From Oscillospiraceae bacterium (GTDB lineage: Bacteria > Bacillota > Clostridia > Oscillospirales > Ruminococcaceae): DNA of 64,000 bases. The notes under the pieces are model-generated. The model worked only from the letters and a program-made list of their open reading frames with translations. It ran no database searches and was not told the DNA's origin. Position numbers and translations under genes: made by a program. This document shows positions 3,221 through 54,738 of the stretch, piece after piece; positions within the stretch are counted from its first letter, which is position 1, and each line of letters starts with the position of its first letter. The stretch lies in NCBI GenBank assembly GCA_045536425.1, contig JAZSNN010000031.1, positions 60,203 through 124,202 on the forward strand, given 5' to 3'.

Positions 3221-5467
3221 TTACGCCATTTCTTCCGTACTGACAAATTCTACTGTTACTACCGTTCCCGGAGCAACCCTTTCTCCCGCTGCGGGAGATT
3301 GTGAAATGGCTTTTGTATTTCCGTCTGAGATATCTATTCCCGATATCTTTATGTTTAGATTTTTGTTGGTAAGTGCCTTGCTCGCCTGCTGACCCGAAAG
3401 CCCGATTACATCAGGCACCGCAACGGTTTTTTCTGTTGATTCCTGATCGGTATAAAGCACCACCGTTCCGCCCTTCGCAAGAGGCTCTCCTGCGCCCGGA
3501 ATCTGCTTTACAACCTTATTTCCATCGCCTACGGTATAGACGTCGAAGCCACTGCTTTTGAGGGTGTTTTGCGCCTCATAGGGCTGTTCGCCTATAAGGT
3601 ACGGAACGCTGATTTCAATAGACTCTAGGTCTTCTGCAGAATATTCGGGCTCTATACCGATGTATGGCAGGATATCAGCAAGGATATTTCCTACTACAGG
3701 AGCCGCGATAACGCTTCCGTATACGCTGTCATTGTGCGGCTCGTCGAGTGCGAGAAGTACTGCTATCTGCGGGTCATCGACGGGTGCAAATCCAAAGAAG
3801 GATGAAATTCTGAGTGAATTATCACCGCTGTCAAGTTTCTCAGAGGTACCTGTCTTTCCGCCAATGCGATAACCTTTTACCTTCGCATATCGTCCGCTTC
3901 CTGTTTCTACGACCTGCTCCAGCATAAGTGCAAGTTCTTTTGAGGTTTCTTCGGAAATTACCTGTCTGACAACAGTGGGAGTTGTTACCTCTACGATATT
4001 TCCGTCGGAATCGAGCTGTTGTTCAACAATATAGGGCTGCATCAGCTTTCCACCGTTGAGAACGCCGGAAATTGCCGTTATCAGCTGTATAGGTGTTACC
4101 TTGAACGTTTGACCGAAAGCCGAAGAAGACAGATAGCTCAAGCTCTCGCTTCCGAGCTCGGTGAGATTGTAAAGGCTGTGAACGAGTCCCGCGTTGTCAG
4201 CTTCACCGGGAATATCAATTCCGGTTTTTGCGTTTAGGCCGTAGTTTGTAAAGTACTTATAGAAAAGTGCTCCACCAAGTCTTTGGCCCATCGTGATAAA
4301 CGCAGGGTTGCAGGAGTTTTTCAAGGTTTCAACAAAGGTTTGTGTTCCGTGGTTTCTGGGGTATCTCCAACATTTTATGGTGTTTCCCGAAACGTTTATG
4401 GCACCGTTGCAAACGAAGGTCGACGAGGAATCGTAGAGGTTTTCCTCTAAAACTGCAGCAGCGGTGAGAATCTTGAATACCGAGCCGGGCTCATATGGCT
4501 CGGAAACTGCTTTGTTTCGCCACTGAAGTTCTTGCTCTATTTTCAGTTGAGCGTAGTACTCGTCGCTTCCCTCTTCGTGCTGTTCAAGGCGCTCTATGGC
4601 ATAATCGTCATACAGCACGAACGGAGAGTTGGGGTCAAAGTCCCCTTTAGTCGTCATTGCGAGTATTCTGCCCGTTTTTATTTCCATTACTATACAAAAC
4701 GCTCTGCCGCGAACGTCGTGTTCTTTCACCGCATTGTCGAGGTGTTTTTCAACAAACATCTGTATTACGGAATTCATTGTGAGCACGAGGCTATTTCCGT
4801 CTGATGCCTCGAACATCTGCTCATATTTATAGGGCATATCGCTTCCCCAAGCGTTTTTGGCAGAAACAATTCTTCCGGGAGTTCCGCTGAGAATTTTGTT
4901 ATAGTATGCCTCGATTCCGTAGAGACCCGAGTTTTCGTCGCCTACAAATCCGAGAACGGTGGATGCGAGCGACCCGTAGGGGTAGTATCTCTTGGTGTCC
5001 TCTTCCATACTTATCGAGCCATTAAGGTCGTTATCGAGGATAAACTGTCTTACTGCGTCAGCTTCTTGGTCTTCGATGCGTTTTTTAACTATCTGATAGT
5101 AGGAGTTTGATTTCTTTGCTCTTTGGTAGATGGTGTCATAGTCGGTACCGAGAATTTCGGACATTCCTCTTGCGATGAGCTGTGCTTCCTCATCACTGTC
5201 TATATTGACGGGGACGAGGTAGACCGTCCACACGGTAGCGCTCTTTGCAAGCTCGTTTCCGAGAGAGTCGTATATTGTGCCGCGGTTGGGGGTTATTGAA
5301 GTGACCTTGAACTGTTGCTGTGACGCTTTTTGTTTATACTCCTCATAGTTCACAAGGTGCAGATACGCGAGTCTTGCAACAAGTATCGCAACCATCACAA
5401 ACGCCATAAAAAAGCTTATGAACTGTATTCTTCTTCTCATCGAAAGATTGGGAGCTTTTACAGCCAA
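3221..5467 (-). CDS. class B penicillin-binding protein (FtsI/SpoVD family) with two C-terminal PASTA domains
   Basis: 748 aa with an N-terminal TM anchor, dimerisation domain and transpeptidase motifs (SVFK, SGN, KTGT), followed by two tandem PASTA repeats; dcw position after ftsL. Confidence 0.9.
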   Translation of the reverse strand: MAVKAPNLSMRRRIQFISFFMAFVMVAILVARLAYLHLVNYEEYKQKASQQQFKVTSITPNRGTIYDSLGNELAKSATVWTVYLVPVNIDSDEEAQLIARGMSEILGTDYDTIYQRAKKSNSYYQIVKKRIEDQEADAVRQFILDNDLNGSISMEEDTKRYYPYGSLASTVLGFVGDENSGLYGIEAYYNKILSGTPGRIVSAKNAWGSDMPYKYEQMFEASDGNSLVLTMNSVIQMFVEKHLDNAVKEHDVRGRAFCIVMEIKTGRILAMTTKGDFDPNSPFVLYDDYAIERLEQHEEGSDEYYAQLKIEQELQWRNKAVSEPYEPGSVFKILTAAAVLEENLYDSSSTFVCNGAINVSGNTIKCWRYPRNHGTQTFVETLKNSCNPAFITMGQRLGGALFYKYFTNYGLNAKTGIDIPGEADNAGLVHSLYNLTELGSESLSYLSSSAFGQTFKVTPIQLITAISGVLNGGKLMQPYIVEQQLDSDGNIVEVTTPTVVRQVISEETSKELALMLEQVVETGSGRYAKVKGYRIGGKTGTSEKLDSGDNSLRISSFFGFAPVDDPQIAVLLALDEPHNDSVYGSVIAAPVVGNILADILPYIGIEPEYSAEDLESIEISVPYLIGEQPYEAQNTLKSSGFDVYTVGDGNKVVKQIPGAGEPLAKGGTVVLYTDQESTEKTVAVPDVIGLSGQQASKALTNKNLNIKISGIDISDGNTKAISQSPAAGERVAPGTVVTVEFVSTEEMA

Positions 5468-5587: not shown

Positions 5588-6043
5588 TCACTGAAAGATT
5601 CTGCTGAACAGAGTTACTGCACCTTCGTCTTCTACGGCGGCGGTGACTATGACCTCGTCATTATTGTTGATGGATATCATCTCCACCTGATACTGTTCTA
5701 TCTTGCTCATATTGAGAGTTTCGGTAGCGTATTCTTCGATCGCGCTGATAGACATCTTTCTATTGAGATCCATCTCAAGACGGGTGTATTCGTTATTAAG
5801 ATCCTCGAGTGTGTTTGTTGCAGCGTTCACCTCTGCGGTTACCTCTGCGAGCATAACGTTTGAGTACAAAAGTGCAGCAACCATAGCCACTACAACTGCA
5901 CCGATGCTGAGCATCTTGAGAGGTGACATATTGAGGACTTTCTGCTTTTTGGGGAGCTTTACTTCTTCAATTTTAGGCTGTCTTTGTACCTCTTCAAACA
6001 ACGAGAGGTCATATGCTACATTTGTTGCACCCATCGGACTCAT
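5588..6043 (-). CDS. ftsL: cell division protein FtsL-like (septum formation initiator)
   Basis: 151 aa with a single TM helix plus coiled coil, in the canonical position between rsmH and the PBP gene. Confidence 0.6.
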   Translation of the reverse strand: MSPMGATNVAYDLSLFEEVQRQPKIEEVKLPKKQKVLNMSPLKMLSIGAVVVAMVAALLYSNVMLAEVTAEVNAATNTLEDLNNEYTRLEMDLNRKMSISAIEEYATETLNMSKIEQYQVEMISINNNDEVIVTAAVEDEGAVTLFSRIFQ

Positions 6044-26580: not shown

Positions 26581-27294
26581 ATGGCAACATATGCTTATTG
26601 CAGAGTATCAACACCGCATCAGAGGTTAGAGAGACAAATTACCAACATCACAGCAATCTATCCAAACGCTATTATCATTAGAGAATTCTTTACAGGAACA
26701 ACCCAGAACAGACCCAACTGGGAAAAACTCATGGGGCAAATAAAATCGGGAGACGTCATCGTTTTTGATAGTGTCTCTAGAATGAGTCGTAATGCCGAAG
26801 AAGGTTTTAGAGATTACAAAATGTTATATGAGCGTAACATTAGCCTCGTCTTTCTCAATGAACCTTTAATTAATACTTCTGTCTTTGATTCTACACGTAA
26901 CAACTTATTGAAAATTGATATCGAAACCGGTAATAATGCCGTTGATGAGTTTTTCAAGGGCAACGTTCAGCTCATAAATAACTTTATGATGGCTCTTGCC
27001 GAACAACAAATCAAAGCAGCCTTTGAGCAATCCGAAAAGGAGGTCACAGACTTACATACACGCATTAGTCAGGGGATGCGTGAGAGCAAAAAGAACGGTA
27101 AACAAATCGGGCTCACAAAGGGAACGACATTGATTACTAATAAATCAATCAAGTGCAAAGAAATAATAAAAAAGCATGCCACCGAATTCGGTGGCATGCT
27201 TAGTGACAAAGAGGTAATGACACTCTGTAAAATATCAAGGAATTCTTATTACAAATATAAGGGAGAATTAAAGAAACAAAGTACCAACACCTAA
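26581..27294 (+). CDS. small serine recombinase (resolvase/invertase family) with C-terminal HTH
   Basis: 237 aa with catalytic Ser in YCRVSTPHQ, conserved D/R residues (DSVSRMSRN) and a C-terminal HTH; GGAGG RBS. Confidence 0.85.
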   Translation: MATYAYCRVSTPHQRLERQITNITAIYPNAIIIREFFTGTTQNRPNWEKLMGQIKSGDVIVFDSVSRMSRNAEEGFRDYKMLYERNISLVFLNEPLINTSVFDSTRNNLLKIDIETGNNAVDEFFKGNVQLINNFMMALAEQQIKAAFEQSEKEVTDLHTRISQGMRESKKNGKQIGLTKGTTLITNKSIKCKEIIKKHATEFGGMLSDKEVMTLCKISRNSYYKYKGELKKQSTNT

Positions 27295-31003: not shown

Positions 31004-32998
31004 ATGGCAAAATACATTATAGAATGTCCACGTTGTGGTAAACCAATTGAAGCTAGTACAGGACTATTTGCGAAAAAAGAAATTGTTTGTCCTGAATGTA
31101 AAAGAAAAATTGATCTTGCTATGGAGAAAATGGTAGAAGAAACTTGTCCTCGTTGCGGAGGTAGAGTTGTATACGACCGCACAAAACCTTCTTCTGCAAT
31201 TTGCCCTACTTGCCATACAAATATTAAGTCTGGCAAGCAAGAGGAAATAACTTGTCCTTCTTGCCAAATGCACTTGAATGTTGATACAAACGCAAAAACA
31301 TGCACTTGCCCTCAATGTAAAACAGAAATTGATGTACAGGCTAGATTGGCGCAAAAAGAAAGTGGCAAAACCGCACAAGTAATTAAATGGGATGGCGAAA
31401 ACGGAGTGTTTATTTATCGTCATCCGATGGAGAACTTCAAACTCGGTTCTCAACTAATTGTTAAAGAGAGCCAAAAAGCCGTATTTTTCCGCAACGGTAA
31501 AGCTTTGGATGTTTTTGGTCCTGACAGATATACTCTTGAAACTCAAAATCTACCTTTGATGGAAGAAATCCTAAAATATCCCACTAATGCAGATTTGACA
31601 TTCAGCTCTCAGGTATACTTCATTAGGACTGATGGACCAATATCAGTTAATTGGGGCATTCCAAAAATGAAATTGCGAAACCCGGGTATGGATTTCTATG
31701 TTGATGTAAGTGCACGCGGTTCGGCTTTTATGCAGATTAAAGATGGAAACGAAAACGTTAGAAAGTTCCTTTCAAAGGTAATAGGTACAGCCACAACTAA
31801 TGGTGTAATAGAGAAGTATGATTCAGAGTATATAACAAATAAATTCCGTGATTATATTACAGCTCGTTTGGGATCGTTACTTGCAGAAATTATCACCTCA
31901 AGCAATATCAATGTCTTAGATCTTGCATCCAAAAGGGCCACTATCAGTGATATGCTGGTCAAGGACTACAACGAATTGTTAGAGGAATACGGCTTAGAGA
32001 TTCCTCCCAAACAATTTATGGTAACAAGCATAGATCCTGTTATTACCCCTGAAGTTGAAACTTGGATTCGCCAAGAGTCTGAAAAGGTGCTCAAAGTTCG
32101 ACAAGAGGGTGTCCTCAAGGCCGAAGCTGAAGCTCGTCAAGGAAGAGTTCTTGTTGAAGAGCAAACCGAAGTTCAAAAGAAAATCCTTAGGACTCAAGGT
32201 GAAGGCGAAGAACGCAAAATCTCTGCAATGGCTGATGCTGATGTTACTCGTATTGAGGCACAAGGTGCGGCTGATGCTACTATTATTTCAACGAAAGCTA
32301 ATGCGGAATCTACCATTATATCTAGTCAGGCAGAAGCGGAAGCGACAATTGTTACCGGACGTGCTGAAGCAGAAACTACTAGACTTACCGGTCAAGCATC
32401 AGCTGAAGCATATAGAGCACAAGCTATCGCAGAGGCTGATGAAATGCACGCCAAGGGTTATACATATGCACAAGAAACCTCTCGCCAAATTGGTTTGGAA
32501 GCATTGCAGAATGGTTTGCCCGGAACCGGTGTGAATATTTCTTCCTCTTCCGAAAAAGGTGGTTCTGGACTTACAGACACACTCGGTGATATGATTGGAC
32601 TTGGTGTTGGTTTGAGCGCAATGGGCGGCGTTGTAAATATGACAAAGGATATTGTGAGTCCTATCATAGGCCAAATCTCTGATATTGGCAAACAACCGAT
32701 AGAAACCCCAGTTGCTACTATGCCTCAAACGAATTTGGTCAGTGCGTGGAATTGTGCTTGTGGCAAATCATGCATCACATCAAAATTCTGTCCAGAATGT
32801 GGTTCTCCCAAGCCGGTAACTTTGGATAACGGCGTTTGGAATTGCACCTGTGGTCAGAGTGGAATCACTTCTAATTTCTGTCCTAATTGTGGTGCTCGTA
32901 AGCCTATAAGCAATACAAATTGGAATTGCCACAACTGCGGACAAACTGACATTACAAGCAATTTCTGTCCTAACTGTGGCAGTAAGAAAGGTGAATGA
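31004..32998 (+). CDS. SPFH/band-7 domain protein flanked by three N-terminal and three C-terminal zinc ribbons
   Basis: 664 aa. There are six N-terminal CxxC pairs. The central region fits SPFH (VIKWDGENGVFIYRHP...KESQKAVFFRNGKALDVFGPDRYTL). An Ala/Glu-rich coiled coil follows (QGAADATIISTKANAESTIISSQAEAEATIVTGRAEAE), then a Gly-rich linker. The C-terminus has three WNCxCGxxxITSxFCPxCG double-zinc-ribbon repeats. Confidence 0.7.
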   Translation: MAKYIIECPRCGKPIEASTGLFAKKEIVCPECKRKIDLAMEKMVEETCPRCGGRVVYDRTKPSSAICPTCHTNIKSGKQEEITCPSCQMHLNVDTNAKTCTCPQCKTEIDVQARLAQKESGKTAQVIKWDGENGVFIYRHPMENFKLGSQLIVKESQKAVFFRNGKALDVFGPDRYTLETQNLPLMEEILKYPTNADLTFSSQVYFIRTDGPISVNWGIPKMKLRNPGMDFYVDVSARGSAFMQIKDGNENVRKFLSKVIGTATTNGVIEKYDSEYITNKFRDYITARLGSLLAEIITSSNINVLDLASKRATISDMLVKDYNELLEEYGLEIPPKQFMVTSIDPVITPEVETWIRQESEKVLKVRQEGVLKAEAEARQGRVLVEEQTEVQKKILRTQGEGEERKISAMADADVTRIEAQGAADATIISTKANAESTIISSQAEAEATIVTGRAEAETTRLTGQASAEAYRAQAIAEADEMHAKGYTYAQETSRQIGLEALQNGLPGTGVNISSSSEKGGSGLTDTLGDMIGLGVGLSAMGGVVNMTKDIVSPIIGQISDIGKQPIETPVATMPQTNLVSAWNCACGKSCITSKFCPECGSPKPVTLDNGVWNCTCGQSGITSNFCPNCGARKPISNTNWNCHNCGQTDITSNFCPNCGSKKGE

Positions 32999-35222: not shown

Positions 35223-36161
35223 CTAACTTTTCAATGAAATGTGCTTCCTGCCGTGGAACTTATCTAACACATTTATTTCATCAACCTGTTTTGCCACATC
35301 ACTGACTAAGAGGTTAATATAATTCTGTGTTATATCTAAGCTTGAATGACCTAACAGTTTTGAGAGTGACACGACGTTGCCTCCACTCAGAATCCATTGT
35401 TTCGCAAACGTATGTCTATACCTGTGTATTCCTGTTGTCTCTACGCCGCGCTTTTTATTATACTCATAGAGCTTATGATAGCAGGTACTTTTAATCAGTT
35501 GTTGACCAAACACATTGCAAAACAGATAGTCATCATCAGACTTATGCTGTCGATATTTTAAATATTCGGTCAAGATATTGACCATTGTTTGATTAAGTGG
35601 AACGATCAACGGTTTTCTATTTTTAGTCACATTCACATAGACGACGCTGTTATCAAAATCAATATCCTTGACTTTTATGTGCATCAGGCTTCTTTGTCTC
35701 ACAGCAGTTGAAAACAAGAAGTTAGTCATAACCCAGCACTGATATTCAGTGAAAGAGCATTTCTTTAAATCGGGCTTCTTAAGCAATAACCTCAGTTCCT
35801 GCTCGTCATACGTTTCTACGTGGGATTTATCGACCTTTATTGACTTCATTTTAAAAGGCTCAATATAGCCCTCATTCATAAGAAAATGCAATGTGGTTAT
35901 CAAATCTCGCAGGTATGAGTTAATACTGACATCATTGTTAAGCGTTGCCTTCAAGTGCAAGACATATCTGTTATATTCATTTTCGTTGAGTCTTTCTATT
36001 GGCATTTCAGGATCAAAGAACTTGAAAAACTGTGTATAGCTTTGGCGATAATGGTTGATAGTTCCTTGTCTTAAATTACGCTGTCGGCAATACTCCAGAT
36101 ACCTATCACACCCCTCTTCAAAAGTAATAGATTTTGTTGCTTTCATTTTCAGTTTGTGCAT
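35223..36161 (-). CDS. tyrosine-type site-specific integrase
   Basis: Conserved R...HxxR...Y catalytic signature (HRYRHTFA ... LGHSSLDITQNY) with an N-terminal SAM-like core-binding domain. Start chosen at MHKLKMKATK with a GTGAGG RBS 9 nt upstream. The gene abuts the right att repeat. Confidence 0.85.
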   Translation of the reverse strand: MHKLKMKATKSITFEEGCDRYLEYCRQRNLRQGTINHYRQSYTQFFKFFDPEMPIERLNENEYNRYVLHLKATLNNDVSINSYLRDLITTLHFLMNEGYIEPFKMKSIKVDKSHVETYDEQELRLLLKKPDLKKCSFTEYQCWVMTNFLFSTAVRQRSLMHIKVKDIDFDNSVVYVNVTKNRKPLIVPLNQTMVNILTEYLKYRQHKSDDDYLFCNVFGQQLIKSTCYHKLYEYNKKRGVETTGIHRYRHTFAKQWILSGGNVVSLSKLLGHSSLDITQNYINLLVSDVAKQVDEINVLDKFHGRKHISLKS

Positions 36162-36306
36162 TGTAACATACCTCACTTTTAACATAAAAAATATAGACAC
36201 ATCATCAAAGAAAACTCTAAAATGATGTGTCTAACTTTTTATTTATTGGTTTTTGTAACAGGTCTTTTACAAGTTGCCCAAAAGCTTTAAAAAGCCTTAT
36301 AAATCC

Positions 36307-51768: not shown

Positions 51769-51810
51769 CCGCTCCGAAGTTAAATTCGGGGCGGAATTCT
51801 TTTTATTTTT
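51769..51810 (+). terminator. intrinsic terminator after rny
   Basis: CCGCTCCGAA-gttaaa-TTCGGGGCGG followed by a T-run. Confidence 0.55.
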
Positions 51811-51834
51811 TATTCTAATTTTTTAAAAATACTA

Positions 51835-51863
51835 TTGACATATCAGATTTGTTGTGGTAGAAT
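51835..51863 (+). promoter_or_regulatory. promoter of tRNA-Leu (TTGACA-17-TAGAAT)
   Basis: Perfect -35 with 17-nt spacer; -10 ends 15 nt before the tRNA. Confidence 0.55.
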
Positions 51864-51878
51864 ATCAAGGTACCAAAC

Positions 51879-51961
51879 GCGAAGGTGGCGGAATAGGCAG
51901 ACGCGCACGTTTGAGGGGCGTGTGGGCAACCATGTGGGTTCAAGTCCCATCCTTCGCACCA
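51879..51961 (+). tRNA. tRNA-Leu (anticodon GAG), long variable arm, CCA encoded
   Basis: GCGAAGGTGGCGGAATAGGCAGACGCGCACGTTTGAGGGGCGTGTGGGCAACCATGTGGGTTCAAGTCCCATCCTTCGCACCA; anticodon stem CACGT/GCGTG with loop TTGAGGG. Confidence 0.8.
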
Positions 51962-52005
51962 TAAAAACAGTTCAACCATTAGGTTGGGCTGTTTTTATTT
52001 TGTTT

Positions 52006-52113
52006 GGGACTTGAATATGAGTTCCAAGAGCACAAGTGCAACGCAGTGCGATTGGGAAGAACAGTCCGGTGGACTGTTCTGTTCACGAATGGATAGTCCC
52101 ATCCTTCGCACCA
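52006..52113 (+). ncRNA. tRNA-3'-end-capped structured repeat, copy 1 (ends in an exact copy of the tRNA-Leu T-stem 3' half + acceptor 3' strand + CCA)
   Basis: GGGACTTGAA...(~85 nt with internal hairpins ACAGTCC-ggt-GGACTGT and GCAC-aa-GTGC)...AGTCCCATCCTTCGCACCA. It is preceded by the tRNA-Leu terminator and followed by its own terminator at 52121..52150. Confidence 0.5.
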
Positions 52114-52162
52114 AATAAAGAAGACTCAACCGACAGGTTGGGTCTTTTTTATTTCATTCGAT

Positions 52163-52373
52163 GGGACTTGAATATGAGTTCCAAGAGCACAAGTGCAACG
52201 CAGTGCGATTGGGAAGAACAGTCCGGTGGACTGTTTCGTTCGTGAATGGCAAAGCCGACGAGCGCTGCCGGTGGCAGAAGAAGCGAGGAGGTCTTTGATG
52301 CCGTCGTCGGCTGGATGCGAACGGAATGTGAGCAGACAGACGCTAACGACAAATGGAAATCCCATCCTTCGCA
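52163..52373 (+). ncRNA. tRNA-3'-end-capped structured repeat, copy 2 (same 5' 95 nt as copy 1, then a ~100-nt insertion with a long-range stem, ending TCCCATCCTTCGCA)
   Basis: The first ~95 nt are near-identical to copy 1. The insertion contains the AGCCGACGA...CGTCGTCGGCT inverted repeat. A terminator AGTCCCTGCCGaaatatCGGCAGGGACTTTT follows at 52374..52405. Confidence 0.45.
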
Positions 52374-52408
52374 AAGTCCCTGCCGAAATATCGGCAGGGA
52401 CTTTTGGT

Positions 52409-52969
52409 TTATTTTGCTATTCTTTTTTTAATCGCCTTCGTCGCTTGTTCTATCACCCAAAACACAAAGCAGGTTATTGTTGCTATCAAGAGCGATTGCA
52501 GGACGTCATACAGCGTTATGCTTTTTATCATATCAAAAACTGTAACTGTAATTTCTTCGGGTTTTGCTATGATGGTATCCGCAGGATAACTTGTATAAGG
52601 CGATCCAAAGAATCTTGGATTTAGATAAAACTCCTTAAAACAAAGGTAGGCTAGTGTGGTTGTAGTTGCCATAATACCGTAATACAGCGGTCTTTTCATC
52701 TTTACAAAGATTTGCACAGCAAAGACTATGGTTGCCATTACAAGCGCAGGAACAGCGTTATACAGTACTGTGTTGAGAACGATTTCTACAAAATCGGGGG
52801 ATTTTGAGAAAAGCAAAAAGTAGTCCTTCGTCCCAATCCACTTCGGTGTATTTATCTGTGAATCTGCAAAGACATATGTCGCTACATATACTGCAACTAT
52901 AAGTACAGTTGGTATCACAAACCACAAAAGTTCCTTTTGTCTTTTCTTCATTTTGTTCCTCCCTATCAA
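52409..52969 (-). CDS. hypothetical polytopic membrane protein
   Basis: 186-aa ORF with ~5 hydrophobic helices; alternative start MKKRQKELLWF six codons in. Confidence 0.5.
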   Translation of the reverse strand: MIGRNKMKKRQKELLWFVIPTVLIVAVYVATYVFADSQINTPKWIGTKDYFLLFSKSPDFVEIVLNTVLYNAVPALVMATIVFAVQIFVKMKRPLYYGIMATTTTLAYLCFKEFYLNPRFFGSPYTSYPADTIIAKPEEITVTVFDMIKSITLYDVLQSLLIATITCFVFWVIEQATKAIKKRIAK

Positions 52970-53133
52970 CTAATGTCTGATGTCAAATACGTATCGGGGC
53001 TCCAAAAAGTATTTTTTAAAGCCTTCCTTTATTTTATAATATCATGCTGTTATTAATAAATCAAGGTGTTTTTGAAGGAATATTATTTATATTGCTGATT
53101 CCGAAAAAAATGCGTTTTTATGAAAATTTATAG

Positions 53134-53162
53134 TTGACTTTTCGGAACAAGTGTGGTATCAT
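53134..53162 (+). promoter_or_regulatory. promoter of tRNA-Pro (TTGACT-17-TATCAT with TG extension)
   Basis: Same architecture and spacing to the tRNA 5' end as the tRNA-Leu promoter. Confidence 0.5.
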
Positions 53163-53177
53163 ATATAAGCAAAATAC

Positions 53178-53253
53178 GTCTGGGTGTGGCGCAGCTGGTA
53201 GCGCGCTACCTTGGGGTGGTAGAGGCCGCAAGTTCAAGTCTTGTCACTCAGAC
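53178..53253 (+). tRNA. tRNA-Pro (anticodon GGG), CCA encoded
   Basis: CTGGGTGTGGCGCAGCTGGTAGCGCGCTACCTTGGGGTGGTAGAGGCCGCAAGTTCAAGTCTTGTCACTCAGACCA; anticodon loop TTGGGGT; acceptor stem has one G-U pair. Confidence 0.75.
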
Positions 53254-53297
53254 CAAGAAAAGCCGTCGACTTTCGTCGATGGCTTTTTTTGCGTGGC

Positions 53298-53407
53298 GAG
53301 ACTTGAAGATGAACTCCAAGAGTGCAAGTGTCAACGCAGCACGATTGGGAGAAACAGTCCAGTGGACTGTTTCGTTCGTGGTTGGACAAGTCTTGTCACT
53401 CAGACCA
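53298..53407 (+). ncRNA. tRNA-3'-end-capped structured repeat, copy 3 (homologous to copies 1/2 but capped with the tRNA-Pro 3' end CAAGTCTTGTCACTCAGACCA)
   Basis: It is ~85% identical to copy 1 over the internal ~85 nt. The ACAGTCC-agt-GGACTGT hairpin is preserved with a loop change. It is preceded by the tRNA-Pro terminator (53254..53290) and followed by its own terminator (53408..53440). Confidence 0.5.
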
Positions 53408-53504
53408 AAAAGAGATGCACGAAAGTGCATCTCTTTTTGCATTTATCGCAGAAGCTTTACGGTTTGCACAAACTTCTTGAACTTGCGGGCTCTACCATTG
53501 CCAT

Positions 53505-53570
53505 CCCCGAGCGGTTGTCGCTTTGGCGACGAGCGAGTGGGGGAATCCCCGCTTTTGTAGGCGGGAGTGA
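53505..53570. repeat. left copy of a ~45-bp direct repeat flanking the GDSL-hydrolase gene
   Basis: GTCGCtttgGCGACGAGCGAGTGGGGGAATCCCCGCTTTTGTAGG versus GTCGCagtaGCTACGAGCGAGTGAGGGCATCCGCCGCTTTTATATGG at 54818..54875. Confidence 0.45.
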
Positions 53571-53574
53571 TGAA

Positions 53575-54738
53575 TCAATTGACATCTTCGCTGAACAGAG
53601 CTTTAATCATTGCATTGCTTATCAGATCCATACCAAGCTCATTAGGATGGACACGACGGTCGGCGATATATTTATCAAAATTTTTCCGATTTTCTGTTAT
53701 GCCGCAGTTTTCAAGGTCTACCATAGTGTAGCCAAAGTGCTTGATAATCTTTTCCAGCTCTGCATTAAACTCAGTGGGAGCCGGTACAACGTCTTTTCCA
53801 TCTAAATCCGGCACTCGACGCGGCAACAGTCCCATGCAGTATACCTCAGCGTCGGGATAGCGGACGCTGATTTTGTGGAGCATGATAGCGTAGGCTTCGC
53901 AGGCGGTAGTGGGTTCTGCATCGGATTGAATCAGCGCGTCATAATCCAAATCAGCCGTACCCAGAGTATCCTGATAGTAGCTGTAGTCGTTAGTTCCCAT
54001 AAACACAACGATTATATCAGGTTCTTCACCTGTATTATCGTTGTGAAGCTGCTCACATCGGCTGACATAAGCGCCCTTTGCATCGTCACGTTCTTGCAGT
54101 ACATAGCTTCCGCTCCAGGAATTGTTGACGCACAGCTTCATTTCCAGAGCATCGATAACCTGTTGCCACCACGTTTCCGATTGGGTGACTTCCGTATTTT
54201 TTACACCGTAATACACAGCATTTTCACCGATCGTAGAGTTATAATCGGAATTATTCGATATACCTATGTAGGTTGAAATACTATCGCCAAGGATTGAGAT
54301 AGTTTTACCTGCATAGGGGTTGGAAGTATAATCGGAGAAAAGGGGCACCTCTTCGCCATAGGTGAAGAGCTTACTATCTGCGGTATCCTCCAGTTCTCTC
54401 GCATTATAATCTTCGCCGATCAGAGCAACAAGTGCTTCCTCCCGGGTGGTGTAGGTTCCAACGGGCTCGCCTTTCTTAACAGCTATGACCTTGCCCTGTG
54501 TTACTTCATACAGGAACAGCTTTGGCATTTCGATTTTATCAGCGTTCTCTGCCATATATTCGGTGTACGCGTCCTTCGCCGCCTGCTTGTCATAGTTATC
54601 CTGCGCTTTAGCGTCGGCCTCACGCAAGATCGGAATCATTACCGATGCCAGTATGACAACGACCGCAACCACAGTCACGAGCACTGCAGCAATTAAAACT
54701 TTTTTGTTTTTTGTTCTTTTCATATCATTTATCCTCAT
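53575..54738 (-). CDS. secreted SGNH/GDSL-family hydrolase
   Basis: 387 aa with N-terminal TM/signal anchor, GDS(I) block ILGDSIST and catalytic D/H-containing block VVFMGTNDY...; C-terminal catalytic domain. Confidence 0.75.
   Translation of the reverse strand: MRINDMKRTKNKKVLIAAVLVTVVAVVVILASVMIPILREADAKAQDNYDKQAAKDAYTEYMAENADKIEMPKLFLYEVTQGKVIAVKKGEPVGTYTTREEALVALIGEDYNARELEDTADSKLFTYGEEVPLFSDYTSNPYAGKTISILGDSISTYIGISNNSDYNSTIGENAVYYGVKNTEVTQSETWWQQVIDALEMKLCVNNSWSGSYVLQERDDAKGAYVSRCEQLHNDNTGEEPDIIVVFMGTNDYSYYQDTLGTADLDYDALIQSDAEPTTACEAYAIMLHKISVRYPDAEVYCMGLLPRRVPDLDGKDVVPAPTEFNAELEKIIKHFGYTMVDLENCGITENRKNFDKYIADRRVHPNELGMDLISNAMIKALFSEDVN

Follow-up and report, generated by a model that had tools for sequence, protein, structure and literature searches.

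A widespread family of tRNA-linked structured units in gut and rumen Clostridia with a design resembling Escherichia coli RtT

Introduction

Repeats capped by a copy of a tRNA 3' end have been known behind the tyrT gene of Escherichia coli since the late 1970s. Here we compare these repeats, named RtT, with three structured units (U1, U2 and U3) that lie in a 64,000-nucleotide stretch of an Oscillospiraceae genome (contig JAZSNN010000031.1), hereafter the window, in which positions are counted from the first letter. U1 and U2 follow one another behind a tRNA-Leu(GAG) gene, and U3 lies behind a tRNA-Pro(GGG) gene. An earlier note on this DNA had offered two explanations for them: a miniature mobile element that targets tRNA genes, or a small RNA that mimics a tRNA 3' end. 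These are still the two leading readings, and they are not mutually exclusive. What the note had overlooked is the RtT precedent, the missing CCA in U2 and the recurrence of the long-form module of U2 in other genomes.

The Rfam model RF00391 matches four RtT copies at the E. coli tyrT locus with 133–137 bits. Each copy of this 178-bp repeat consists of GGGGAAGGAU, the reverse complement of tRNA-Tyr positions 59–68, followed by GAGAA, two hairpins, a purine-rich linker and AAUCCUUCCCCCACCACCA, which is the last 19 nt of tRNA-Tyr. The Rfam consensus structure closes with a helix formed by the two arms and leaves ccaCCACCA free. E. coli genomes hold 1–10 copies (median 3), and 18 of the places where copies occur are on plasmids. 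Two open reading frames (ORFs), tpr and ychS, are annotated within the repeats (L153, E. coli K-12 1286709–1287236). The function of RtT has been described as unknown (PMC7542023; bioRxiv 10.1101/2024.07.17.603846).

Results

A family of units linked to tRNA genes

The units of the window belong to a previously unannotated family that is widespread in gut and rumen Clostridia, and our confidence in the family, its structure and its tRNA linkage is high. Its members share one anatomy, are linked to tRNA genes through a fixed junction between tRNA positions 56 and 57 (56/57), carry matched inverted and direct arms around a strand-specific covarying core, and occur in tandem and chimeric forms. 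An exact-pattern scan of one genome per species yielded 106 loci, and a metagenome scan with a looser pattern yielded 41 (loci outside the window are numbered with the prefix L). With a covariance model (CM; A2, R1) built from 29 units and a search cut-off of E≤1e-8, we then found 68 units. The hosts are Oscillospiraceae, Acutalibacteraceae, Ruminococcaceae, 'Eubacterium' and Agathobacter metagenome-assembled genomes (MAGs), together with metagenome contigs. No Rfam family matched the units at gathering or permissive thresholds, up to E≤10, and because they are missing from Rfam, annotation pipelines overlook them. Two patterns gave zero matches in 2.9 million viral contigs, so that no link to phages emerged, and a literature search for tRNA-targeting miniature or guide elements returned nothing relevant. 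The earlier note had argued for one structured family rather than three decayed islands; the 68 units, whose arms track the neighboring tRNA, their attachment to many tRNAs and to transfer-messenger RNA (tmRNA), the strong covariation described below and the lack of any integrase, island or phage context around the units support it.

The window illustrates the anatomy (Table 1). Sequence, alignment and folds bear out the arrangement first reported, with two units after tRNA-Leu, one after tRNA-Pro and a terminator after each. Both arms of U1 and U2 derive from tRNA-Leu positions 54–76 (TTCAAGTCCCATCCTTCGCACCA). The opening of both units, GGGACTTGAA, is the exact reverse complement of tRNA-Leu TTCAAGTCCC; likewise, AGACTTGAA at 53299–53307 of U3 is the reverse complement of tRNA-Pro TTCAAGTCT, which covers T-loop and T-stem. 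The antisense openings were thus described correctly, as complementary to the cognate T-loop and T-stem 3' strand. The claim that every unit also closes with a verbatim tRNA 3' end holds for U1, whose 3' arm AGTCCCATCCTTCGCACCA is the 3' end of tRNA-Leu (19 nt, CCA included), and for U3, whose 3' arm CAAGTCTTGTCACTCAGACCA is that of tRNA-Pro (21 nt, CCA included), and it fails for U2, which has only the 14-nt TCCCATCCTTCGCA without CCA. Core identity is 92% between U1 and U2 and 78–82% between the Leu and Pro units, somewhat below the ~85% first estimated for the latter. A compensatory change that the note had implied is present: the Leu units have GCAC/GTGC where the Pro unit has GTGC/GCAC. 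Three occurrences of the core motif CAACGCAGNNCGATTGGGA were counted in the window, versus 0.09 expected by chance, and the family CM, run over the whole 64 kb, matches the three units only; it detects no unit behind the tRNA-Val on the minus strand.

Five terminator hairpins with folding energies of −19 to −26 kcal/mol bracket the tRNAs and units, and two of them were also found by a terminator scan. By alignment, T1 (3' of tRNA-Leu) is homologous to T2 (3' of U1), with a common centre TCAACC-N4-GGTTGGG. T3, which follows U2, is unrelated to either and is probably the original terminator of the locus. T5, behind U3, is host sequence: it is the convergent terminator of the GDSL-lipase gene at 53575–54738(−), and the same hairpin stands 3' of the GDSL gene in L155 and L156, relatives without a unit. 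A promoter scan of the window found promoter-like sites for the two tRNAs only, and none belonging to U1, U2 or U3.

Linkage to tRNA genes was counted for the 60 units whose upstream sequence extends for at least 110 nt. In 42 of them a canonical tRNA 3' end, a motif with a background of 0.1 per kb, lies within 110 nt upstream on the same strand; the rest include eight units directly after a preceding unit, two after a tmRNA gene and four orphans. The arms of orphans L123, L131 and L038 match a tRNA, yet no tRNA accompanies these units. Overall, at least 13 tRNA types are represented (Ser, Leu, Thr, Tyr, Gln, Lys, Val, Arg, Met, Ala, Pro, Trp and Asn) in addition to tmRNA, and units always lie on the strand of the tRNA. 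Several are embedded in tRNA operons, flanked by no terminator, in the arrangements Thr-unit-Tyr (five MAGs), Arg-unit-Ala-unit-unit (L054) and Gln-unit-Lys-unit (L023), and these units must therefore be co-transcribed with the tRNAs.

The arms obey strict rules. About 25 units end in 20 nt that match the end of the upstream tRNA exactly (positions 57–76), and identity of this sense copy always begins at R57, which places a fixed junction right after T54-T55-C56. The 5' arm is an exact reverse complement of the same tRNA over 7–16 nt. It reaches 18–21 nt, with one mismatch or inserted base, in L057, L070 and L130, a subfamily that lacks the sense copy. No second copy of the tRNA end was found downstream of units without a nearby 3' copy (L070 and L088), where only ordinary genes follow. 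The direct repeat that flanks the core is 20, 27 or ~60 nt long: it stops at CCA in L067 and L023, extends 7 nt further in L093, and spans the whole terminator (~60 nt) in L002, L011, L089 and L097.

Near-identical cores (hairpin A GGCTCGC...GTGAGCC) stand behind Ser, Thr, Ala, Val and Arg tRNAs in different genomes, which indicates that arms are renewed faster than cores diverge. In the chimeric units L043, L138 and L139 the 5' arm fits the adjacent tRNA and the 3' arm comes from another tRNA; a deletion from one core to that of a neighboring unit would explain this most simply. Tandem arrays occur in the window (U1 and U2), L001, L054 and L114. Long forms (U2, L018 and L060) have the same ends as short ones, with 100–190 nt inserted, and the inserts again hold hairpins tipped CC-GGU-GG or CC-UGU-GG. 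The ~100-nt extra segment first noted in U2 is indeed present, but it is not a random insertion: its hairpin GCTGCCGGTGGCAG is identical in the long form of L018 and a similar one occurs in L060, making U2 a long variant rather than a unit with random extra DNA.

A tmRNA-linked example is found at L090 (3768–4227), where a unit follows the tmRNA gene with smpB upstream. Its 3' arm is the proper tmRNA 3' end, AATTCCCACCGCCTCCACCA; the upstream ssrA copy lacks the T-arm, and cmscan runs the tmRNA through the unit as 125 nt inserted at the T-loop. Another copy is found 1.6 kb downstream (5782–5892), and the pair flanks an ORF with a SHOCT domain inserted in the terminator loop.

At L015 (3196–3309, minus strand) a tRNA-Tyr truncated after the variable arm is fused to the middle of a unit core, apparently through a deletion between the tRNA and a downstream unit that left a tRNA pseudogene. 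At L097 (~5047–5129, minus strand) the tRNA-Leu(TAG) gene in front of the unit reads A at position 72 and does not encode CCA, whereas the 3' arm of the unit is intact (CAGGTGCACCA), so that the good copy of the 3' end sits in the unit. We rejected the CCA in the arms as a sign of RNA origin, given that 66 of the 68 tRNA genes in unit loci encode CCA. Uncapped copies of the core were also seen: four metagenome loci (L119 1132–1165, L122 2776–2809, L124 954–987 and L127 2687–2720) have the same three-way-junction core without a tRNA 3' cap, reading CTCCAAGAG...GATTGGGAG, a hairpin tipped CC-RGU-GG and then CGATAG. In L119 a tRNA lies upstream of the core, and an internal segment of this tRNA is repeated in direct orientation ahead of the core. 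Some contigs end inside or beside units, perhaps through breaks in assembly (for example L053, L075 and L115).

A covarying core closed by the arms

RNAalifold and the covariance model give a three-way-junction core whose closing helix consists of the two arms. From 5' to 3', a unit comprises the antisense arm (tRNA position 54 or 57 to 65–71), the core, a purine-rich linker (GAGAAGA in the main type) and the sense copy of 57–76. Hairpin A rises from a base UCCAA/UUGGG with an invariant U·G, through an internal loop, to a distal stem that covaries freely, and hairpin B has a covarying stem with an invariant CC-RGU-GG tip. Across 66 distinct sequences, standard pairs fill 94.3% of cells, versus 28–47% when partners are slid by 1–3 columns, changes on both sides occur in 23 of 28 pairs, and the covariation score is 0.44, versus at most 0.06 in controls and reached by 0 of 500 shuffles; the alignment was fitted to the model, which favors structure, and a MAFFT-based analysis was independently concordant. 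All seven pairs of the arm helix covary.

Counts of G·U against A·C mismatches were 101:7 in hairpin A and 14:11 in the arm helix. The G·U excess in hairpin A identifies the tRNA strand as the strand that folds. We read the arm-helix ratio as the mark of templated DNA copies that later decay, not of RNA pairs under selection. A retroviral-type primer-binding site on the minus strand was also considered and is disfavored by the G·U bias, which puts the structure on the plus strand.

We also folded full read-through transcripts (tRNA, terminator and unit) with ViennaRNA. In these thermodynamic predictions, which leave aside co-transcriptional folding and tRNA tertiary structure, the cloverleaf is lost (z = −6.4 and −8.5). 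The antisense arm is predicted to pair with the T-loop and 3' strand of the tRNA itself, forming a long hairpin tipped by the terminator, and the distal sense copy is predicted to pair with the 5' acceptor strand of the tRNA. As modeled, the arms provide what a swap of tRNA 3' halves would need.

Comparison with RtT and other described systems

RtT is the closest described relative in design. Both kinds of repeat lie directly 3' of a tRNA on the same strand, occur in tandem and have their parts in the same order, ending in a verbatim tRNA 3' end with CCA (19 nt in RtT and U1, 21 nt in U3). In both, the 5' arm is complementary to the T-loop, the T-stem 3' strand and the start of the acceptor, and a closing helix leaves a free acceptor-CCA tail. 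The core hairpins, however, are unlike. RF00391, whose gathering score is 45 bits, has no match in window positions 51800–53600 at E≤10 or in seven other unit-bearing loci at E≤1, and the Clostridial model scores RtT at only 6.5–11 bits, through the arms and GAGAA. Whereas the four RtT copies at the E. coli locus that we examined (other E. coli matches were not mapped to loci) all flank tRNA-Tyr genes, the Clostridial arms are re-matched across at least 13 tRNA types and tmRNA. Most Clostridial units, moreover, are bracketed by intrinsic terminators, and long forms and forms without a sense arm exist. By analogy, then, the Clostridial family may work like RtT, with which it shares its design, yet it appears to be a separate and much more promiscuous family.

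The comparison gives RtT a wider setting. Its design, with an unrelated core sequence, exists across abundant gut and rumen Clostridia and is re-matched there to many tRNAs and to tmRNA, turning a single-locus oddity of E. coli into a general class. The rules of this class (junction 56/57, an antisense and a sense arm, an invariant hairpin tip) can be tested, and its dozens of natural arm variants and covarying stems provide material for asking whether such repeats are selfish DNA that homes to tRNA genes, small RNAs that mimic tRNAs, or both. In practical terms, the units create spurious ORFs and promote deletions in tRNA clusters.

Other systems share single features with the units. Islands and prophages inserted in tRNA or tmRNA genes by tyrosine integrases are bounded by a direct repeat that runs from T-loop to CCA and sometimes beyond, and the tRNA stays intact; tmRNA is likewise among their targets. 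In contrast, the units have neither integrase nor cargo, the whole insert measures ~90–250 nt among housekeeping neighbors, and an inverted target copy and a covarying structured core are added. The likeness to integron attC and CTX-phage attP sites is one of logic only, with structure kept over sequence, strand specificity, and a stem that reproduces a duplex target, which would explain why units hold both sense and antisense copies; the units lack an integron integrase, attI and a dif site, and their targets are tRNA T-loops. TnpB/IscB omega RNAs and IS110 bridge RNAs also flank a structured scaffold with target-matching segments, one per target strand. The units differ in having no adjacent nuclease or recombinase gene and no match to Rfam guide-RNA families, in that their two target-matched segments overlap and pair together, and in a much smaller scaffold. 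Unlike the fixed terminal inverted repeats of a miniature inverted-repeat transposable element, the inverted arms change with the target tRNA; the units are also flanked by a 20–60-nt repeat of a tRNA 3' end, and no transposase partner was seen.

BOX-like repeats of Streptococcus suis and its relatives have a motif in common with the units, GATTGGG-N3-AACAGTCCAGTGGACTGTT-N3-GGTTGGAGA, and reach 25–30 bits with the Clostridial model. We found them at 69 loci within L003–L106 (for example L004 5586–5613 and L010 3543–3570), where GATTGGGTTTAACAGTCCAGTGGACTGTTAAAGGTTGGAGA is common to them and the Clostridial core. No tRNA lies within 500 nt of any of the 69 copies, however, and they have no tRNA-derived arms; BOX-type modules follow the motif instead, and copies are many per genome. 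Hosts are S. suis, S. orisratti, S. porcorum and relatives, and several copies stand at contig ends.

Discussion

On balance, we lean towards the view that the units are RtT-like, tRNA-linked structured elements that are co-transcribed with the tRNA and spread or duplicate at tRNA 3' ends. We hold the RNA role with moderate confidence and the insertion route with low confidence. Transcription would start from the tRNA promoter and reach the units within tRNA operons or through terminator read-through. A unit could then be released as a small RNA in which the arms pair and the acceptor strand and CCA are left as a free tail; such a freed RNA would mimic a tRNA 3' end in the manner described for rtT RNA of E. 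coli. As DNA, units may arrive and multiply by recombination in the T-loop, with the junction at C56/R57, and insertion would duplicate the tRNA 3' end and sometimes the terminator too. The simplest route would be Campbell-type insertion of an intermediate that carries 57–76, a spacer, the antisense arm and the core, either as a small circle or as a folded single strand. This route would yield the exact order observed, and it would also account for the likeness of T1 and T2 and for T3 and T5 being host sequence. Tandem copies could then result from unequal crossing-over and chimeras from core-to-core deletions. Relatives at 82–87% protein identity have no unit at tRNA-Leu (L108) or tRNA-Pro (L155), although the flanks there are diverged or hold other elements.

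Several observations weigh against this view. Strong terminators stand between tRNA and unit in the window. None of the units has a linked recombinase, reverse transcriptase or nuclease, no circular form was seen, and no clean empty site was found among the relatives retrieved through RNase Y and the GDSL lipase, which are too diverged or rearranged; a search for near-identical strains with the exact sequences of two proteins encoded in the window had no hit on record. Because neither a circular form nor a clean empty site was found, mobility is deduced from distribution only. Campbell insertion, furthermore, gives a poor account of the way in which the two arms come to match a new tRNA, and none of the subfamily (L057, L070 and L130) in which the antisense arm is long and the sense copy missing. 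At the orthologous Thr-Tyr locus of five MAGs, hairpin A differs by compensatory changes, as expected of a unit that has long persisted there by vertical descent under selection, rather than of a recently mobile one. A single DNA strand that folds could likewise account for covariation with G·U pairs, and sequence homology to RtT could not be demonstrated with covariance models in either direction.

Persistence at one locus invites the proposal that the units are not mobile at all, but are cis-acting processing or termination modules that arose by local duplication of a tRNA 3' end and have since been inherited vertically. The Rfam class of RtT is cis-regulatory, units always lie on the tRNA strand, and the unit at the orthologous Thr-Tyr locus has been kept, with compensatory changes, in all five MAGs. 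We nevertheless consider this proposal improbable: one core stands behind many unrelated tRNAs and tmRNA, within a genome and across families, orphan units exist (L123, L131 and L038), and close relatives lack units. One homologous core everywhere excludes independent local origin as the source of the family. Still less can be said for the idea that the units are scars, left on the attR side by integrase-bearing islands that once occupied these tRNA genes. Duplication of a tRNA 3' end starting in the T-loop is the classic signature of a tRNA-targeting integrase, and relatives do hold elements at these tRNAs (in the anticodon loop at L155, a restriction-modification island at L108). Yet the same ~110-nt structured core recurs in 68 units, none of which adjoins an integrase or island, scars would not be expected to show compensatory evolution of a core, a tRNA-matched antisense arm is foreign to att scars, and the 2.9 million viral contigs scanned contain no copies. 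When ORFs of at least 150 aa were clustered in ~55 Clostridial loci of up to 8 kb each, no protein family occurred in more than six loci, and the top clusters were a sigma factor, Obg, MatE and similar proteins; the scenario in which the core is the terminal segment of intact islands, raised in the earlier note as one that would refute its proposal, thus finds no support. The reading as deletion remnants is largely refuted, and we regard it as very improbable.

Two further explanations, each of which we think unlikely and neither of which we would place above the other, concern what the structured core does. In one of them it is a protein-binding scaffold, and the 7–21-nt antisense arm guides an effector encoded elsewhere to the cognate tRNA or its gene, either for homing of the element or for control or quality surveillance of the tRNA; the sense copy would then either be left over from insertion or cover the guide like a lid. 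Of the features matched to the target, the antisense arm is the most constant, its length is greatest (16 nt exact, 18–21 nt with one mismatch or inserted base) where the sense copy is missing (L057, L070 and L130), and in chimeras it is always the 5' arm that fits the adjacent tRNA. An invariant CC-RGU-GG tip and invariant junction bases on covarying stems are what a scaffold for protein recognition would show, and the predicted read-through folds (z = −6.4 and −8.5) pair this arm with the T-loop and 3' half of the tRNA. No candidate effector gene lies beside any unit, however, the units show no similarity to the guide-RNA families of Rfam (HEARO, IS605-orfB motifs), the guide would be sequestered in the arm-to-arm helix in most units, and with no G·U bias among the arm-helix mismatches (14:11) RNA-level selection on pairing is not evident. 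Taken to its end, this line of thought leads to a programmable tRNA-directed RNA system, made of a scaffold, a 7–21-nt guide to the 3' half of one tRNA or tmRNA and a spare sense copy, which we put forward only as an outside chance. In read-through transcripts the guide is predicted to capture the T-loop and 3' strand and the spare copy to replace it in the acceptor stem. Such a system, if real, could serve RNA-guided homing or the control, repair or surveillance of individual tRNAs, and its mechanism would explain E. coli RtT too. The other explanation dispenses with RNA: the plus strand would fold as single-stranded DNA, the arm stem would imitate the T-arm duplex, and a tyrosine recombinase would exchange one strand at 56/57, much as happens at integron attC or at CTX-phage attP with XerCD. 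The 3' ends of tRNA and tmRNA genes are classic targets of tyrosine recombinases, and a tmRNA-linked unit is among those found. Exchange at 56/57 would produce tRNA(1–56), the element's 57–76 and spacer, the antisense arm, the core and host 57–76, which matches the order observed; the right junction is fixed and the direct repeat varies in length, structure is kept while sequence varies and central length ranges from ~75 to 250 nt, as in attC sites, and the strand bias is compatible with one recombinogenic strand. Against it, no dedicated integrase is near (the sole tyrosine recombinase of the window, at 35223–36200, is 16 kb off), operon-embedded units are necessarily transcribed, sense-less and orphan units fit poorly, and retargeting would require both arms to change together. 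T-boxes, ribozymes (hammerhead, twister and hatchet), retrons and C/D-box RNAs were rejected as identities, since no Rfam match of any kind was obtained on the units.

Features of the window and of related loci

Table 1. Positions of tRNA genes, units, unit parts, terminators and promoter-like sites in the window. CM, covariance model; MFE, minimum free energy.
Feature	Position	Strand	Evidence
Promoter-like site of tRNA-Leu	51835–51863	+	11/12 consensus match, TG extension
tRNA-Leu(GAG)	51879–51961	+	ARAGORN; Rfam tRNA 48.7 bits
Terminator T1, 3' of tRNA-Leu	51962–51998	+	terminator scan; −20.3 kcal/mol fold; alignment
U1, short form	52006–52113	+	sequence; CM R1 80.7 bits; fold
U1 5' antisense arm	52006–52015		
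U1 hairpin A	52023–52056		
U1 hairpin B	52059–52079		
U1 3' sense arm	52095–52113		
Terminator T2, 3' of U1	52114–52156	+	−22.1 kcal/mol fold
U2, long form	52163–52373	+	sequence; CM R1 59.8 bits over 52158–52269; fold
U2 5' arm	52163–52172		
U2 core	to ~52250		
U2 extra module	~52251–52359		
Hairpin GCTGCCGGTGGCAG in U2 extra module	52268–52282	+	
U2 short 3' arm	52360–52373		
Terminator T3, 3' of U2	52373–52414	+	terminator scan, 14-bp stem; −26 kcal/mol fold
Promoter-like site of tRNA-Pro	53134–53162	+	10/12 consensus match
tRNA-Pro(GGG), arm source of U3	53180–53255	+	ARAGORN; Rfam tRNA 60.7 bits
Terminator T4, 3' of tRNA-Pro	53256–53290	+	−21 kcal/mol fold
U3	53298–53407	+	sequence; CM R1 70.5 bits; MFE and centroid folds concordant, z = −3.0
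U3 5' arm	53298–53308		
U3 hairpin A	53315–53349		
U3 hairpin B	53352–53372		
U3 3' arm	53387–53407		
Terminator T5, 3' of U3	53408–53438	+	−18.9 kcal/mol fold

Genes near the units of the window are housekeeping genes; an ORF of 180 aa without a Pfam match (52409–52951, minus strand) and the GDSL-lipase gene also lie there. The plus-strand ORFs 52036–52245, 52193–52624 and 53134–53805, which had been called spurious from the start, run through units, terminators and tRNA-Pro and are very likely artefacts of the repeats. Farther away, at 16–25 kb from the units, are a serine resolvase (26581–27294) and the tyrosine recombinase mentioned above, a protein of 325 aa. No link to the units could be shown for either of them or for an SPFH/Band-7 protein with zinc ribbons in the same range of distances (31004–32998), which has a weak Cas12f-like TNB match.

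The corresponding loci of relatives hold a variety of other elements. At L108 (7006–11572; RNase Y 87% identical) an island with HTH_17, a large N6-methylase and an Alw26I-type restriction enzyme, rather than units, lies behind tRNA-Leu(GAG), and repeated aatcgttgaa-like motifs stand between the two. At L154 (1860–2100; GDSL lipase 96% identical) a TnpV/DUF6809 mobile element replaces tRNA-Pro and most of the unit, leaving a remnant like the 3' end of a unit (GTTTCGTTATGAAC...ACTCGCACCA) and a terminator. At L155 (4312–4372, read on the minus strand; GDSL lipase 82% identical) tRNA-Pro(GGG) is represented only by its 3' ~50 nt, from the anticodon loop onward, and there is no unit; this remnant is preceded by repeated ctggtacaa motifs and resembles the attR end of an integrative element with the anticodon loop as its target.

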